Origin: a virus
Lineage: Duplodnaviria > Caudoviricetes
IMG/VR virus record: IMGVR_UViG_3300037418_002332
DNA length: 64,000 bases
Reading direction: 5' to 3' (one strand)
Shown piece after piece: positions 2,138 to 18,228 of the stretch. The notes under the pieces were generated by a model. It had not been told where the DNA came from and did not search any database. It saw nothing but the letters and a program-made list of their open reading frames with translations. The number at the start of each line of letters is the position of its first letter. The stretch's first letter is position 1. The position numbers were made by a program, and so were the translations under genes.

Positions 2138-3075
2138 ATGAAATTATTGAACCACTAGACAATGGAACTTATCAAAAGGCCAAAGGCGGCACAGAAATGA
2201 TGTATGGGGAGCTTATCAAACGGCTCCCTCAACATCTTGTTGATAAGACGCAAATCATTTGTTCACGCATTCGCAATCTTGATCCAACGAAGAAAAAAGT
2301 TTTGTGGCTTCATGACACATGGGATGATCCTGAAAATGAACATCTCAAATATCCTGAATTGCGCAAACGATTTTCCAAATTGGTGTTTGTATCCAATTAT
2401 CAATTCCAGACATATCATCAAGCATATGGCATCACATACGAAGAATCCGTCGTTCTGAAAAATTGCGTTCAGCCATTTACTTCAATCAACAAACCCGATA
2501 TAAATGAGCGTGTTAATCTGATCTATCATACAACACCTCACCGTGGTTTGGAATTGTTGGTTCCGGTGTTTGTGAAGATGGCCCAGTCGAACCCAAAGTT
2601 GCATCTTGACGTGTATTCATCGTTCGACATTTATGGATGGCCACAAAGGAATGCGCCATATGAACCATTGTTTGACATTTGTCGTAATCACCCTCAAATC
2701 GATTACCACGGAACCGTACCAAATGCCGATGTCCGGTCGGCTTTGGAAAAGGCCCACATCTTTGCATTTCCTTCAATATGGCCTGAAACCAGTTGCATTG
2801 CTGTTATGGAGGCAATGGCTGCCGAGGTAGCAGTGGTCTGTTCGGATTATGCAGCATTGTCAGAAACGACAATGGGCAATGCAATGATGTATCGCTTCCA
2901 AGAAACTCCGGTTGCACACGCGAACCTTTTTATGTACGCTCTGCAGGAGACCATCAAAAACCTCACTCAAAATGATCTAAGAAAGAACTTGACTTTTGCC
3001 AAAAACCAGGTTATAATGAATTATTCCTGGGAATATAGGATTCCCCAGTGGATTGAGCTCTTGGAGAACCTTTGA
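2134..3075 (+). CDS. glycosyltransferase, GT-B fold (GT4/group 1)
   Basis: 'FPSIWPETSCIAVMEAMAA' is the E-x7-E nucleotide-sugar motif; 'YHTTPHRGLELL' and 'KGGTE' are typical of phage GTs. Confidence 0.88.
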   Translation: MNEIIEPLDNGTYQKAKGGTEMMYGELIKRLPQHLVDKTQIICSRIRNLDPTKKKVLWLHDTWDDPENEHLKYPELRKRFSKLVFVSNYQFQTYHQAYGITYEESVVLKNCVQPFTSINKPDINERVNLIYHTTPHRGLELLVPVFVKMAQSNPKLHLDVYSSFDIYGWPQRNAPYEPLFDICRNHPQIDYHGTVPNADVRSALEKAHIFAFPSIWPETSCIAVMEAMAAEVAVVCSDYAALSETTMGNAMMYRFQETPVAHANLFMYALQETIKNLTQNDLRKNLTFAKNQVIMNYSWEYRIPQWIELLENL

Positions 3076-13523: not shown

Positions 13524-13981
13524 TTCCCTTGGTGCTTCCTAATCCAATCATGTAAATCTGAGGTTGTGCCGGTGAAAATGGCTTTATCAATGTTCACGTT
13601 TCCGGCACCCTCTGATTTGACTTTGGTGTGGTATCTTTTCTTCTCTGAATAAATTTCCAAAAGTTGTTTGTTAGCATTTAACAGCGTTGTTGACATTTGA
13701 GCCAATGCTGAGAAGTGGCTTGCCTTTTCTGAATCTTGAGCAATCAATGAAAGCTTTTGAACACCATCAGCAATTTCAGTTATGAGGTCTTTCAGTGATT
13801 CACGAATTTCCTCAAAATCATCATTGAAACGGTCATCCATTCCTTCATCTGGATTGAAGACCATATCATAATTTTGCTTAACGGTTTGTAAATTCTTTTG
13901 AGCTTGTGTAACAATGTTATTCGTCTTGTTCACTTGCTTTTGTTCTTCTATTTCGAAGATATCATCTAAATGTTTCGCCAT
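13520..13981 (-). CDS. gp16: terminase small subunit
   Basis: Follows gp15; helical core 'DDFEEIRESLKDL...NANKQLL' and C-terminal 'NIDKAIFTGTTSDL' fit cyanophage-type gp16. Confidence 0.82.
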   Translation of the reverse strand: MAKHLDDIFEIEEQKQVNKTNNIVTQAQKNLQTVKQNYDMVFNPDEGMDDRFNDDFEEIRESLKDLITEIADGVQKLSLIAQDSEKASHFSALAQMSTTLLNANKQLLEIYSEKKRYHTKVKSEGAGNVNIDKAIFTGTTSDLHDWIRKHQGN

Positions 13982-14853
13982 TACTTGTCAGTTCCTGATA
14001 CTGGGTCATATTTCTTTCCATCATCAAACACTTCAATCGTTTCAATCAAAGCATATGGATCATCACGATTAATTTCACTAACTGGAATTGAATCACCCAA
14101 CACTGTGGTTGGTGTCCCATTTGCAGTCAATCCTGGTTGTACTGTAATTCTGGTATCACGACCAAATTTATCAACTTCATCACCAGTCACTGGACCGTTT
14201 CCTGGAACTGAAATCAAGTCAACAATAGCTCTCTTGATAACACCTTGACTTGAAATTGGACCAAAGAAATAAGCTGCCATTCTGAATTGAAGTGTCCAAT
14301 TGATAAATCTTGGTTCTTCAACACCACCTTGATATTCATCATTTTTGTCGATATTGGTCAATTCAACCATGGAGTCAAATCTCAAATCCATTTCTGGGAT
14401 AACAATAACCGTTGGTGTGAATGAAGGTCTGAAAAATGGAATGATTTGTCCAATTATTTGATGGGCATCATCAGTTGTCTTTGTGTAAATTTGAAGTGTA
14501 AAATCAAAGTTGTAAGGAATTTCAGCATATTGAACTTTCATCACATTTGAATTCAACACTTTGACGTTTTTTTGAATTGGATTGACTGCGCGTTCCCGAG
14601 CAAACTCAATGTTGGTCAATTCATAAGCCATTCTTGGGAGTTGAGTTTGGACTTTGGTGGTGATCGGATTCTTTTCATCCAAAGCAACAAACTTGGATGC
14701 ACCTGCGATTTGACAAGGCACTGGAATAACTTGAAGTTTTGTGCCTGTTGCATCCACTCTATGGATGTATATGTCATTGAACATATTACCAAAGACTGTT
14801 GAATATTTTCGAATTATGTCGTTGTTGAAGAACTCAACTCCAAGCATTACCAC
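13981..14853 (-). CDS. gp15: tail sheath stabiliser / tail terminator
   Basis: 'IIRKYSTVFGNMFNDI', 'LPRMAYE', 'PYNFDFTLQI' and 'QIIGQIIPFF' motifs; synteny. Confidence 0.92.
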   Translation of the reverse strand: MVMLGVEFFNNDIIRKYSTVFGNMFNDIYIHRVDATGTKLQVIPVPCQIAGASKFVALDEKNPITTKVQTQLPRMAYELTNIEFARERAVNPIQKNVKVLNSNVMKVQYAEIPYNFDFTLQIYTKTTDDAHQIIGQIIPFFRPSFTPTVIVIPEMDLRFDSMVELTNIDKNDEYQGGVEEPRFINWTLQFRMAAYFFGPISSQGVIKRAIVDLISVPGNGPVTGDEVDKFGRDTRITVQPGLTANGTPTTVLGDSIPVSEINRDDPYALIETIEVFDDGKKYDPVSGTDK

Positions 14854-15692
14854 TTCCCTCTATTGATAAATGGTGATTGATCAGAATAATCAATGAGCAC
14901 TTCACCATTCTTTTGCAACAATTCATTATCAGCTTGACTATCTTTGTCTTCAATCACGTTGTTTTCTTCAACCAACACATCATTGCCTGATTGATCTTCA
15001 ATTGGGTCTCCATCTTCATCATCAAGAGCCTTTGGAAGTTGATCAGTGCTTAACAAAGTATTAAATGCATCAATTGCATCATCACCAGTATCAAATTCTT
15101 CGTTGTTGTAACGGAACAACTCGCACTTCAAATCATATGTAAGTAGAGTGCCAAGCGGATGGAACAAGTTTTCATGTTCTACGAATAGAATTTCAAAAAT
15201 TTTATCAACCATAGGCATGTAAATCAAGTCGCCAGCCTTCGGAAATGATGCTTCAACTGAATAATCACCACCAGGACCGTTTTCTTCAGTCAGCGTTACA
15301 GTTTCATAAGGTGTCCAATCAGGTGATTCAGCAGGTTCAATTGGATTACCATATTCATCCAACACTTTTTCTTCATTTGATTCACGCCAACGACGTCTTG
15401 AAACTGTGAAAGTAATTTGATCACGTTGTTCTTCACCAAACATGGTCATGATTTCATTCTGACCTTCATAGTTATCATATGATTTGACGTAAACTTCAAT
15501 TTCAAACGCATAATTGAATTTGGCAAATGTATCATCACCAAAAAGTGGATCACGTTCGAACTGTTCTCTTGGTATATAACGAATGAACATGCCATTCATT
15601 CTGATTGCTTGAATGATCAAATCCTCAATCAACTTTTGTCGAGGCTTGAAAAAGTAGTTGTTAACGAACGGATTTGGTGATTTTTCAACCAT
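14847..15692 (-). CDS. gp14: neck protein
   Basis: 'YIPRE...LFGDD', 'IEVY', 'GDLIYMP', 'FEILFVEHE' and 'YDLKCELFRY' motifs; synteny. Confidence 0.92.
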   Translation of the reverse strand: MVEKSPNPFVNNYFFKPRQKLIEDLIIQAIRMNGMFIRYIPREQFERDPLFGDDTFAKFNYAFEIEVYVKSYDNYEGQNEIMTMFGEEQRDQITFTVSRRRWRESNEEKVLDEYGNPIEPAESPDWTPYETVTLTEENGPGGDYSVEASFPKAGDLIYMPMVDKIFEILFVEHENLFHPLGTLLTYDLKCELFRYNNEEFDTGDDAIDAFNTLLSTDQLPKALDDEDGDPIEDQSGNDVLVEENNVIEDKDSQADNELLQKNGEVLIDYSDQSPFINRGKW

Positions 15693-16444
15693 TAAGCGAT
15701 TTCATCCAATACTGGGAAGTTGCCTGTTGAGATGAGCTTTTCTTCAAGCTTATCAATTTCATCAATAGCTTCTGAATACATCGTTTGAGCATCTAAAGTG
15801 ACACCATTCAACAATGGAATGTTTGAATACAACTTCAGATTTTCTGCCCACTGACGTTTCATCAACGCAGTTGCATATCTCTTCAACCAACGATCTTGCC
15901 AGATAGAAGCATATTGATTAGGGTCAAGGAAAGCTTCAGTTTCAAAGATGATTTTATTACCTAGAACCATGATCTGTTGACCAGCTGCACCGTAAATTTC
16001 AACAGTGTTGGTAATCTTGCTGAAACGAATTGACGGAGTAGTGTTGAATAGGAAATTGATATCCGCCAATCTTGTCATAGCCACGTAATATGGAATGAGT
16101 GTGTAAGAAACATTATGATTCATGTTGTAAAATTCATCGCGGAGATACTGATAACGATCAGACATCCAACTAGAGTCAAAGTAACCAACAGGTGGCAGAA
16201 TGTTGGATACAGTCATGATAGTTTCCGGCAAATGGATTTTACCAGTGTCGATGTCTTCTTGAGTTATGGTATGAATATAGAGTGACTTTTCTGAACCGAG
16301 ATAGTGATAATCTCGATAAAAAGCTAATGCATCGTCTATTCTATCCATTGCTTGTTCATTCTCAACGTTGACTTGGATTACAGGCCATCCTAGACGACGG
16401 AAAATGTATGCTTTGAATTCTGCTTTTGATCTTGGTTCTGCCAT
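15692..16444 (-). CDS. gp13: neck protein
   Basis: 'YIFRRLGWPVIQVNV', 'WLKRYATAL' and 'GVTLDAQ' motifs; synteny. Confidence 0.93.
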   Translation of the reverse strand: MAEPRSKAEFKAYIFRRLGWPVIQVNVENEQAMDRIDDALAFYRDYHYLGSEKSLYIHTITQEDIDTGKIHLPETIMTVSNILPPVGYFDSSWMSDRYQYLRDEFYNMNHNVSYTLIPYYVAMTRLADINFLFNTTPSIRFSKITNTVEIYGAAGQQIMVLGNKIIFETEAFLDPNQYASIWQDRWLKRYATALMKRQWAENLKLYSNIPLLNGVTLDAQTMYSEAIDEIDKLEEKLISTGNFPVLDEIA

Positions 16445-16466
16445 GGAATTTCCTCTGGTTTATTCA

Positions 16467-16474
16467 TATTTATT
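16467..16474 (-). promoter_or_regulatory. T4-type late promoter (AATAAATA)
   Basis: AATAAATA on the - strand about 22 nt upstream of the gp13 ATG. Confidence 0.55.
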
Positions 16475-16522
16475 CCCTAAAGAAAAACAATCTTCCTTTA
16501 AAAATTTAGCTTTGGATAACTC

Positions 16523-16551
16523 TTGACTTCAAGCGTAGTTAAGCGCAAGCT
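16523..16551 (+). promoter_or_regulatory. sigma70-like promoter for the peptide gene
   Basis: TTGACT (16523-16528), 17-nt spacer, CAAGCT; shares 'CTCTTGACTT' with the promoter at 16842. Confidence 0.45.
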
Positions 16552-16586
16552 AATAATGCGAGGGGATTTAGAGGGAGTACCTGAAA

Positions 16587-16736
16587 ATGAAAGCAATATG
16601 CGCTCTGTGCGTAGCCATTTTCATGGCTGCGATTCAACCTCAAGCATCTCGAGCATGCACTGATCAATCCATGTGTGATGGGTTTCTTGGCGGCGGAAAT
16701 AACCAAAACCATAATTCTGCTGGCAATCACAATTAG
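16587..16736 (+). CDS. 49-aa putative secreted peptide with a Sec signal sequence, not in the track
   Basis: GAGGGAG SD at 16571-16577; MKAICALCVAIFMAAIQPQASRA|CTDQSMCDGFLGGGNNQNHNSAGNHN shows n-, h- and c-regions with an S-R-A cleavage site; flanked by a promoter and hairpins. Confidence 0.65.
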   Translation: MKAICALCVAIFMAAIQPQASRACTDQSMCDGFLGGGNNQNHNSAGNHN

Positions 16737-16786
16737 TTGAAGATTTGCTTCAAAGGTGAGAGCGGGTTGGGGATCTTTGGAGCAAA

Positions 16787-16829
16787 AAGGTGGTGGCCCA
16801 GGTGTGACCGCGTCGGGCCACCACTTTCT
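16787..16829 (+). terminator. intrinsic terminator (possibly bidirectional)
   Basis: GTGGTGGCCC (16790-16799) / GGGCCACCAC (16815-16824) is a perfect 10-bp stem, with an A-run before and TTTCT after. Confidence 0.7.
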
Positions 16830-16841
16830 AGAAGAAACCTC

Positions 16842-16870
16842 TTGACTTTATCTAAAATTTTAGGCATAGT
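16842..16870 (+). promoter_or_regulatory. sigma70 promoter, alphaproteobacterial type
   Basis: (C)TTGACT at 16842-16847, exact 17-nt spacer, CATAGT at 16865-16870. Confidence 0.65.
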
Positions 16871-16875
16871 GGTGT

Positions 16876-16993
16876 TGTTCTGGAGCTTGCCTAGCCTCTC
16901 CCTTCTGTTCCATGGGATGGGTGAGTTCTGGAAACCCACCGCGAGTCCGCCACTCCCCCCTTCGGTTAGGATCGCGGTGGGTTCTTCATTTTT
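16876..16993 (+). ncRNA. candidate ~118-nt trans-acting sRNA with anti-Shine-Dalgarno loops
   Basis: Directly follows the promoter. Stem 1 is 16882-16893/16918-16929 (G-U rich) around CCUCUCCCUUCU. Stem 2 is a perfect 12-bp 16933-16944/16972-16983 around ACUCCCCCCUU. A U-tract follows. Confidence 0.55.
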
Positions 16994-17594
16994 ATGAAGG
17001 CCAATAAGAATTGTTGGTGTAGTCCGTTGGAATTGGACTGGTGGATTTAATTGCTCTCGCGGCAAAAATGCACTTTGTTTCCCATGATGCGGCTGCTTGA
17101 CCGAAAGCAAAGCACGTTGGAGCATCCATCAAATTCAGGCTGTTATCATCAGCGATCCAAACGAAATCTGATGTACCTCCATGCCAACGATAGTTTCCTG
17201 CTGCGGCTCCAGCAGCCATTGCGAACCCTGCTAGAGTCGCTGCTCCGATGATACGAGCCTTGGACTCGTTGTCCATCGCGTAGCTTTTACCGTTGAAAGT
17301 GAACCCTGTTGCGATTCGGCGATCGCGCTCAGCATTCACTTCAGTTGACGTTACAACTTGAGCAACAGTTGACCAAACATATTTTGGAATACCATTGGTA
17401 ACAACAACCGAAACTGATGTTGGAATACGACCAGCTGGAATTGGATCGGCAGAAACAATTTCTTTCAATGTATGCGTAGCGTTTTCCCAACCAGCATATG
17501 CTGGGGATGTTTGATCATTACCAATCGTAAATGATCCACCAGGAAGGACTTCCTTCACGAAACTTGCGTCTGACTTCTTAATAAGTGCTAGCAT
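16992..17594 (-). CDS. tail fibre assembly protein / chaperone (DUF4376-like)
   Basis: 'VNAERDRRIATGF' and 'WIADDNS..LMDA..CFAFGQAA..W...IFAARAIK' are typical of DUF4376 proteins. Confidence 0.8.
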   Translation of the reverse strand: MLALIKKSDASFVKEVLPGGSFTIGNDQTSPAYAGWENATHTLKEIVSADPIPAGRIPTSVSVVVTNGIPKYVWSTVAQVVTSTEVNAERDRRIATGFTFNGKSYAMDNESKARIIGAATLAGFAMAAGAAAGNYRWHGGTSDFVWIADDNSLNLMDAPTCFAFGQAAASWETKCIFAARAIKSTSPIPTDYTNNSYWPS

Positions 17595-18228
17595 TTTTTA
17601 TCCTGTTGTAAAGTTCAATGTCTTGTTCATAGTATTTATTGACAGCATTTCGTGTATCTTCATTGTAAAACCTATCAACAAATTCCTTTGTATCATGACC
17701 ATTAATGGACTTGTTTTGCCATTTCAATGGTTCCTTAACTTCAACTCCATATGTTTCAACAAATTGATTAATATGTTTTTGGATGTTATCAAATAGCCAC
17801 CAAGTTCCAACTTGTTTACCTTGATATTCCAAAAATGTATGCTGTTCTTGATTTTGCCAAAGTGTGTCTGGATAATATCCACTCATGACACTTTCTCTGA
17901 AATGCTGAACACTCGGATTTGAAATCAAACCTTGTTTTGCTCTATACAAATACAAGCTCAATACACGTTCAAATGGTTCTCTGATAACTCCAACGATAGT
18001 TTCATTCAAATCAATTAATCCATGTTCAACTGCATATTCAACATCCATATGGGAATGTGGTGCATGAACACCCATACCTTGAGACCAATGATCAGTTGGA
18101 GTGTTGTAATATGCAGTGTAACGATCTTCAGGACCAACTACATTATCAATAAAAAACCGTCTAATTGATGTAGAAGCATTCTTCGGAACGTTGATGAAAT
18201 TGAATTTATACTTTCGTATGCTTATCAT
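17578..18228 (-). CDS. sulfotransferase (Sulfotransfer_2 family)
   Basis: 5'-PSB 'FINVPKNASTSIR', 3'-PB 'VIREPFERVLSLY' and C-terminal 'YYEQDIELY'. Confidence 0.85.
   Translation of the reverse strand: MISIRKYKFNFINVPKNASTSIRRFFIDNVVGPEDRYTAYYNTPTDHWSQGMGVHAPHSHMDVEYAVEHGLIDLNETIVGVIREPFERVLSLYLYRAKQGLISNPSVQHFRESVMSGYYPDTLWQNQEQHTFLEYQGKQVGTWWLFDNIQKHINQFVETYGVEVKEPLKWQNKSINGHDTKEFVDRFYNEDTRNAVNKYYEQDIELYNRIKNASTY

Follow-up and report, generated by a model that had tools for sequence, protein, structure and literature searches.

P0249, a probable gene for an exported small peptide in an uncultured T4-type soil phage

Introduction

Several small T4 proteins, including Sp (spackle), Imm and RI, are produced from host-type promoters and directed to the cell envelope by an N-terminal export or anchor signal. 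They are non-essential and patchily distributed among T4-type phages. Fremin et al. reportedly predicted phage small-protein families in bulk in 2022. Small proteins of phages are reckoned in 'millions', many of them with export signals (review, PMC11323111). Arbitrium AimP is a short phage-encoded pre-pro-peptide that carries an N-terminal secretion signal (PMC11323111). T4-type genomes also contain ORFan cassettes flanked by PeSLs, and the rare PeSLs of the virion module accompany genes of unknown function (Arbiol et al. 2010, PMC2839356). PeSL stem-loops keep early transcription out of late genes (PMC2839356).

The DNA analysed here, which we call the window, is a stretch of 64,000 nucleotides and forms one part of a 247-kb IMG/VR virus record (97% complete, GC 39.8%). 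The phage is an uncultured soil phage. An earlier note, made from the letters alone, had taken it for an apparently lytic T4-like phage, and the T4-type genome with its virulent-phage layout agrees with this. The same note had proposed an overlooked gene for a secreted peptide at 16587-16736. Here, we report that this frame, P0249, is likely, with a probability of about 0.8, to be a real gene for an exported small peptide, whatever its role.

In small size, host-type promoter, envelope targeting by an N-terminal signal and patchy distribution, P0249 would be analogous to T4 Sp, Imm and RI. However, it has no sequence similarity to them (PHROG, Pfam), and the mature part would comprise 21-26 residues rather than roughly 70-80. 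PeSL-associated ORFans offer a second comparison: P0249 would likewise combine a putative sigma-70-like promoter with a GC-rich stem-loop; it occupies different sites in related genomes and lies inside the virion module. In contrast, the RB49/phi1 PeSL sequence motif is absent, and the copies of P0249 share no DNA outside the ORF and the Shine-Dalgarno (SD) sequence. At P0249 itself, the stem-loop and a genome-wide TTGACTT-N17-TATAAT promoter family are present, its own -10 is weak, and no repeat lies on both sides. P0249 also resembles the small proteins predicted in bulk in having fewer than 50 codons, being missed by annotation, being conserved among related phages and having a predicted signal peptide, but it is not represented in Pfam, PHROGs or NCBIfam.

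Results

The frame lies in a lineage-specific gap

The features of the locus are listed in Table 1. The earlier note had described the gene as antisense within the late region. Its orientation is indeed opposite to that of its neighbours, but it lies in the intergenic gap between gp13 and the DUF4376 gene and overlaps no gene. A longer form is excluded by an in-frame TAG at 16569-16571. Gene callers called nothing at P0249 on any contig carrying the window phage.

Table 1. Positions of genes, predicted elements and candidate signals around P0249 in the window
Feature	Coordinates	Strand	Remarks
gp15	13981-14853	-	
gp14	14847-15692	-	
gp13	15692-16444	-	
Lineage-specific gap, 547 bp	16445-16991		Stands where relatives carry a DUF1353 gene (synteny)
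-35-like hexamer TTGACT	16523-16528	+	Aligns with TTTACA of both homologues; shared spacer piece TARTTAAGCG
-10 position at 17-nt spacing	16546-16551	+	CAAGCT, weak: only A2 and T6 fit (2/6)
Shine-Dalgarno AGAGGGAG	16570-16577	+	9 nt before the ATG of P0249
P0249, 49 codons, with stop	16587-16736	+	Probable gene; ATG start, TAG stop; homologues P0248 and P0250:12-60 (alignment A4)
Predicted Sec signal peptide, residues 1-23	16587-16655	+	K2, h-region 3-16, P18, S-R-A; heuristic test
Predicted mature 26-residue peptide	16656-16733	+	Cys-Thr start, C-x5-C loop, D-G-FLGGGNN core, Asn/His/Gly tail
GC-rich hairpin after stop	16787-16827	both	Terminator-like; -28.0 kcal/mol on + (z -4.6), -25.3 on -
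Small-RNA candidate	16842-16993	+	TTGACT-17-CATAGT, two long hairpins, U-tract
DUF4376 tail-fibre-like gene	16992-17594	-	Beyond it, a sulfotransferase-like gene and further transferases

We compared the gap with the same position in related phages. Six relatives identified through gp13 (52-64% identity) have 2-37 bp before gp13. In relatives identified through DUF4376 (69-76% identity, contigs of 153-262 kb), the gene order is sulfotransferase, DUF4376, DUF1353, gp13. The DUF1353 gene (131-138 aa) overlaps the start of gp13 and, in the comparison with L009, L011, L012, L006 and L007, is present in all syntenic relatives; it is absent across the whole genome of the window phage. Contigs with an identical gp13, from several samples, have the same 547-bp gap with no gene calls in it. 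Judged by synteny, DUF1353 is replaced here by unrelated DNA of similar length with two opposite-strand units, the peptide gene and a small-RNA candidate. Neither a decayed DUF1353 pseudogene (tblastn E > 0.4 in all frames) nor a repeat element (no second copy in the genome) accounts for the gap.

In relatives, gp13 overlaps the preceding DUF1353 gene, so a promoter and an SD of its own were apparently acquired once DUF1353 had been replaced. A T4-late-promoter-like ATAAATA was seen on the - strand at 16467-16473, 23 nt before the gp13 start.

For the small-RNA candidate, the stretch 16737-16995 was predicted to fold at -107 kcal/mol (z -5.1) on the + strand, compared with -85 kcal/mol (z -2.6) on the - strand. 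The gene whose ribosome site paired best with its C/U-rich loop (-30.4 kcal/mol) lies beyond the window, at genome position 68599. The peptide mRNA was rejected as a specific target: its site ranked 25th of 305 (-22.0 kcal/mol), and the duplex energy of the whole mRNA was no better than that of shuffles. No Rfam family matched the region at the gathering threshold (noise only, at E of at least 0.13), no tRNAs were found, and neither blastn nor megablast matched the region to any phage record.

Two homologues define a small family

A six-frame search of the full records of relatives detected a match to the peptide in a 256-kb genome, IMGVR_UViG_3300037466_002112 (G001), with E 4e-8 within that genome. 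This match is a 45-residue ORF, P0248. A profile of the two sequences detected a further homologue, P0250, among 5.8 billion proteins (E 2e-10). P0250 is a called gene of 60 aa on a 59-kb contig from another sample (L037), and its Met12 form aligns end to end. The homologues are 41-43% identical to the window peptide and occupy another position in their genomes. In both relatives, the gene is divergent to a NadR-like (cytidylyltransferase + Nudix) gene, lies on the strand opposite to every neighbour and is otherwise surrounded by small ORFs.

In the three-member alignment (A4), M1, Pro at -6, Ala at -1, Cys-Thr at +1/+2, the second Cys and F-L-G-G-G-N-N are invariant; within the mature part these columns are C24, T25, C30, F33, L34, G35-37, N38 and N39 in window numbering. 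The second Cys lies 4-5 residues beyond the invariant Cys-Thr, followed by the core [DE]-x-FLGGGNN and an Asn/Gln/Gly tail of variable length, with conservation lowest at the C-terminus. The signal region drifts in sequence but retains its character (a basic residue, 12-14 hydrophobic residues, S/A at -3). We wrote the A4 pattern as the SD AGAGGGAG, a signal peptide, small-x-Ala, C-T-x-x-x(0,1)-x-C-[DE]-x-F-L-G-G-G-N-N and an Asn/Gln/Gly tail, with a length of 45-49 residues. All three sequences fit this definition, and pattern scans of IMG/VR returned those three only. Across 185,579 species genomes, the pattern gave a single chance match, inside a 962-aa protein.

Other searches delimited the family. 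The peptide gene is absent from two complete or near-complete relatives, G003 and G004, and a weak match in G003 (E 0.097) is not a homologue. Conservation by tBLASTn, the check proposed in the earlier note, gave noise only among 50,697 phage records (E 6), but the six-frame search of relatives did reveal a homologue. Searches by phmmer in 1.84 billion representatives returned only long low-complexity repeat proteins. Locus searches of viral, metagenome and genome collections, run with either the peptide or alignment A1, detected none; their tblastn confirmation was too strict for such a short query, and the homologues do sit in the same collection. P0249 had no match in Pfam, PHROGs, NCBIfam or PDB and none usable in the ESM Atlas, and the A4 motif did not occur in the literature searched. 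The three distinct sequences all come from soil metagenomes. They constitute a new orphan family, probably of Sec-exported, disulfide-looped peptides of 21-26 residues on free-standing cassettes. So far, the family is found only in jumbo T4-like soil phages.

Divergence follows the reading frame

We next compared substitutions between family members. The G001 and L037 copies are identical at 31 of 45 residues and differ at 10, 8 and 30 sites in codon positions 1, 2 and 3, respectively. Synonymous change has reached saturation (23.8 of 30.5 sites), with a dN of 0.28. The dN/dS ratio of the window copy was 0.17 against L037 and 0.41 against G001, and each of three shared Cys codons differs synonymously between the window copy and G001. 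The frame is intact in the homologues: no frameshift was found, and all indels are whole codons. Between the window phage and G001, identity in core genes is only 41-52% (gp13 41%, NadR-like 46%, sulfotransferase 52%), so the peptide appears to have been kept over a long divergence.

These comparisons bear out the earlier proposal of an overlooked gene, in that the SD, the cleavage-site geometry and the mature core are kept in two homologues and substitution is biased toward third positions. P0249 is, on this comparative evidence, very probably a protein-coding gene.

Predicted signal peptide and mature peptide

P0249 begins with M-K, followed by 14 uncharged hydrophobic residues and Q-P-Q-A-S-R-A, which places Pro at -6 and S-R-A directly before Cys24. 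The 26 residues that follow are polar, starting with Cys-Thr and with the second Cys six positions on. Export was assessed with a rule set of our own (basic n-region, 12-residue hydrophobic window, small residues at -3 and -1). The positive charge of the n-region is provided by K2 in the window copy and by R5 in both homologues, with no acidic residues before the h-region. Residues 3-16 form an uncharged h-region, within the expected ~7-15 residues and with a mean Kyte-Doolittle value of at least 2.0 over 12, and the homologues are similar. At -3 to -1, the window copy reads S-R-A and both homologues read A-N-A, and the helix-breaking Pro at -6 occurs in all three. AlphaFold2 predicted a helix at 3-15 only, with low confidence (pLDDT 58).

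The Sec-type signal peptide and the short Cys-looped mature peptide proposed earlier thus hold as predictions, with the geometry of the n-region, the h-region and small-x-Ala conserved in 3/3 sequences. Taken together, our heuristic and this conservation make export and cleavage of P0249 likely. Processing by signal peptidase II as a lipoprotein or o-spanin was rejected, since the lipobox expression [LVI][ASTVI][GAS]C fails in 3/3 sequences: the PROSITE PS51257-type rule calls for an uncharged residue other than Asn at -2, where these sequences carry R or N. Precursors of lasso peptides or microcins were considered on paper only; Thr at -2 and a double-glycine leader are both absent.

Signals around the frame

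The strong SD reported earlier was confirmed: the octamer AGAGGGAG is identical in all three members, at 6-9 nt before the ATG, in otherwise diverged DNA. The site is meaningful in this phage, because its long ORFs use GGAG/AGGA-type sites at 5-10 nt.

The upstream TTGACT promoter was supported in part. Its -35 is good, is aligned in the homologues and is the same TTGACTT that heads the genome-wide TTGACTT-N17-TATAAT early-type promoters. However, its -10 is poor, and a consensus promoter scan called nothing at TTGACT. The hexamers aligned to CAAGCT in the homologues are CATCAT and TATCGT. There is a good AATAAT 23 nt from TTGACT and no good -10 at 16-18 nt; the sole 8-of-12 site in the gap is TTCAAG-18-AATAAT (16528-16557). 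By its position, TTGACT is weakly suggestive of a promoter with a degraded -10 in the window copy. In the homologues, the consensus scan found promoters, together with a terminator, on the correct strand.

Downstream of the stop, the element that the earlier note had read as a terminator is a very stable hairpin, but it lacks a U-tract on the + strand, where only UUUCU follows, and a terminator scan found nothing. The U-run is better on the - strand, and the hairpin may equally stop late transcripts leaving the DUF4376 gene. Both homologues also have a stable hairpin shortly 3' of the stop. The TTGACT-17-CATAGT site of the small-RNA candidate starts 15 nt beyond the window hairpin.

Metatranscriptome and metagenome contigs

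In one rhizosphere metatranscriptome library, a single 154-nt contig covered 16573-16720, and nothing else of 15700-17600 was covered. This unstranded contig may represent a single fragment or carried-over DNA, and the uncovered parts are not evidence of silence. It differs from the window at one site, G>T at 16662, which changes D26 to Y in a variable column. No RNA runs were listed for the 1.9-kb stretch, and a separate RNA search found one run with a small share. The contig is a weak hint that P0249 is transcribed.

A lone 151-nt contig with nearly the same coordinates was present in a run guessed to be DNA. Thus, two runs have lone contigs of ~150 nt within 16573-16726 with uncovered flanks, which may be a coincidence, fragmentation or an assembly effect.

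Discussion

Alternative readings of the locus

The frame might be a chance one in acquired non-coding DNA, in which case the gap would be no more than an insert with a regulatory function or an sRNA, and the SD and hydrophobic start would be accidental. ORFs as long as this occur frequently in the gap (4 with an ATG and at least 30 aa, against 2.6 expected), gene callers skipped this one, the family, structure and ESM Atlas searches returned nothing for it, and the nearest gp13-relatives have no such gap at all. Its codon-usage score exceeds that of the five other frames, but falls within the lowest 3% of true in-frame windows and so is low for a gene. GC3 is 0.37, compared with 0.36 for the phage, with raised GC in positions 1 and 2, and the RNA fold of the ORF is unexceptional (z -0.4), which fits a coding region. 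Over the whole genome, our rule set passes 12 of 1301 ATG ORFs of 30-100 aa, and 3 of 1301 when an SD is also required; one of the two others is an obvious lipoprotein. When the 547-bp gap was shuffled 58,583 times with dinucleotides preserved, a signal-peptide-like ORF of at least 30 aa appeared in 0.47% of cases, and one with an SD in 0.04%. At P = 0.0004, P0249 is more than chance would give. The two homologues in other phages, located at another genome site, speak against accident as well: their divergence is biased toward third positions, their indels are codon-sized, and SD, start and stop are conserved. A chance frame is therefore largely refuted, and we regard it as highly improbable.

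If P0249 is instead an uncleaved, membrane-anchored small protein, it could be toxic in the manner of Hok and other type I toxins, perhaps under the control of the small-RNA candidate. Its size, its N-terminal hydrophobic helix and its polar, Cys-containing C-terminal part recall Hok; in the predicted fold of the mRNA, codons 10-13 can pair with the start codon, and the RNA candidate with its C/U-rich loops lies 100 nt downstream. Yet the hydrophobic run is just 12-14 residues long and leads into Pro and the conserved small-x-Ala, as in a cleaved signal peptide. Neither a toxin family match (Pfam and NCBIfam, E up to 10) nor a specific antisense RNA partner was found, the RNA candidate pairing best elsewhere in the genome, and the homologues have no such RNA alongside. 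We consider an anchored toxin unlikely. A signalling peptide acting between phages or on the host, by arbitrium-like logic or as a mimic of a host peptide signal, would also be a small pre-peptide with a predicted export signal, and the phage is uncultured. Unlike AimP, however, no copy has an adjacent AimR-type or other receptor-like gene: the neighbours are gp13 and DUF4376 here, and the NadR-like gene and small ORFs in the relatives. Conservation falls on the N-terminal loop and the core rather than on a short C-terminal signal, and the mature C-terminus is variable, with no conserved hexapeptide. The phage, moreover, is of the virulent T4 type and its host is likely Gram-negative. Until lysis, a Gram-negative periplasm does not freely release a peptide of 2-3 kDa, which also counts against signalling. 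The arbitrium-like logic suggested in the earlier note was thus not borne out, and signalling seems to us very improbable.

A possible route from gene to periplasm

The nearest cultured phages are only 33-39% identical in gp13 and grow on Ochrobactrum, Pseudomonas, Serratia, Caulobacter and Sinorhizobium. DNA of the window region was found in soil and rhizosphere metagenomes, and the DUF4376 protein is 51-68% identical to Rhizobiales proteins. Since this identity agrees with nearest cultured phages on Ochrobactrum, Caulobacter and Sinorhizobium, the host is probably a Gram-negative alphaproteobacterium.

As a gene for an exported peptide, P0249 would form its own small transcription unit opposite to its neighbours, with a host-type -35/-10, a short G-rich leader bearing the SD AGAGGGAG, 45-49 codons and a stable hairpin. 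Host polymerase would transcribe it early. The Sec system of the host would then export the precursor, and signal peptidase I would cleave it between small-x-Ala and Cys-Thr. This would deliver a neutral-to-acidic peptide of 21-26 residues to the periplasm of the probably alphaproteobacterial host. There, the first-residue Cys and the second Cys could close a 6- or 7-membered disulfide loop that presents the invariant [DE]-x-FLGGGNN, with a flexible Asn/Gln/Gly tail after it. We derive these steps from the sequence combined with what is established about Sec export and DsbA. The gene appears to be mobile within these genomes, as it stands beside the NadR-like (NAD-salvage) early gene in two phages and here on a DUF1353-replacing cassette.

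Because the peptide is neutral to acidic and not amphipathic, membrane damage is unlikely, and a specific periplasmic binding role is more likely. By analogy with the T4 proteins, we tentatively suggest that the peptide is an early effector in the periplasm, directed at the cell envelope or at incoming phage, and favour superinfection control or masking of the envelope or a receptor. Superinfection exclusion and receptor blocking are reasonable guesses. That an exported, disulfide-constrained peptide of a jumbo phage lytic on Gram-negative soil bacteria serves as a signal or decoy is quite improbable. Lysis might then release it to condition cells nearby, or it might bind a periplasmic sensor or receptor of the host to control superinfection or lysis timing. 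Were this true, phage peptide effectors would gain a new class with no relation to arbitrium.

Small secreted ORFans of phages are already known to be common, and the value of P0249 lies in a specific family rather than in a new principle. It provides a worked example of a gene of fewer than 50 codons that standard gene calling missed and comparative evidence alone validated. The family of probably exported peptides in giant soil phages was previously undescribed. A synthesisable peptide of 21-26 residues is also a concrete and cheap target for asking about periplasmic phage products in non-model hosts. In addition, the locus illustrates gene replacement by an opposite-strand cassette inside the conserved neck/tail-fibre module of a T4-type phage.

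Additional observations in the genome

The DUF4376 gene has a GC content of ~0.5 at 16992-17400 (- strand), corresponding to the GC-rich C-terminal two thirds of the protein. This part is 57-68% identical to proteins of Mesorhizobium, Aureimonas, Rhizobium and Shinella (Rhizobiales). The DUF4376 proteins of the window phage and G001 are 75% identical, against only 41% for gp13, which suggests exchange of a tail-fibre module; the DUF4376 identities also hint at the host.

Early-type promoters of the form (C)TTGACTT-N17-TATAAT/TATAAG occur at ~10 intergenic sites genome-wide, for example at 2988-3025 (G000:C1:140184). They provide a usable consensus for early transcription of the phage.

Two further short ORFs were seen in the genome. 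The one at G000:C1:48771 (+), outside the window, is of unannotated size (47 aa), has an SD and contains V-S-A-C, a textbook lipobox, which makes its product a candidate lipoprotein or o-spanin. The other, at G000:C1:238461, is a signal-peptide-like ORF of 73 aa.
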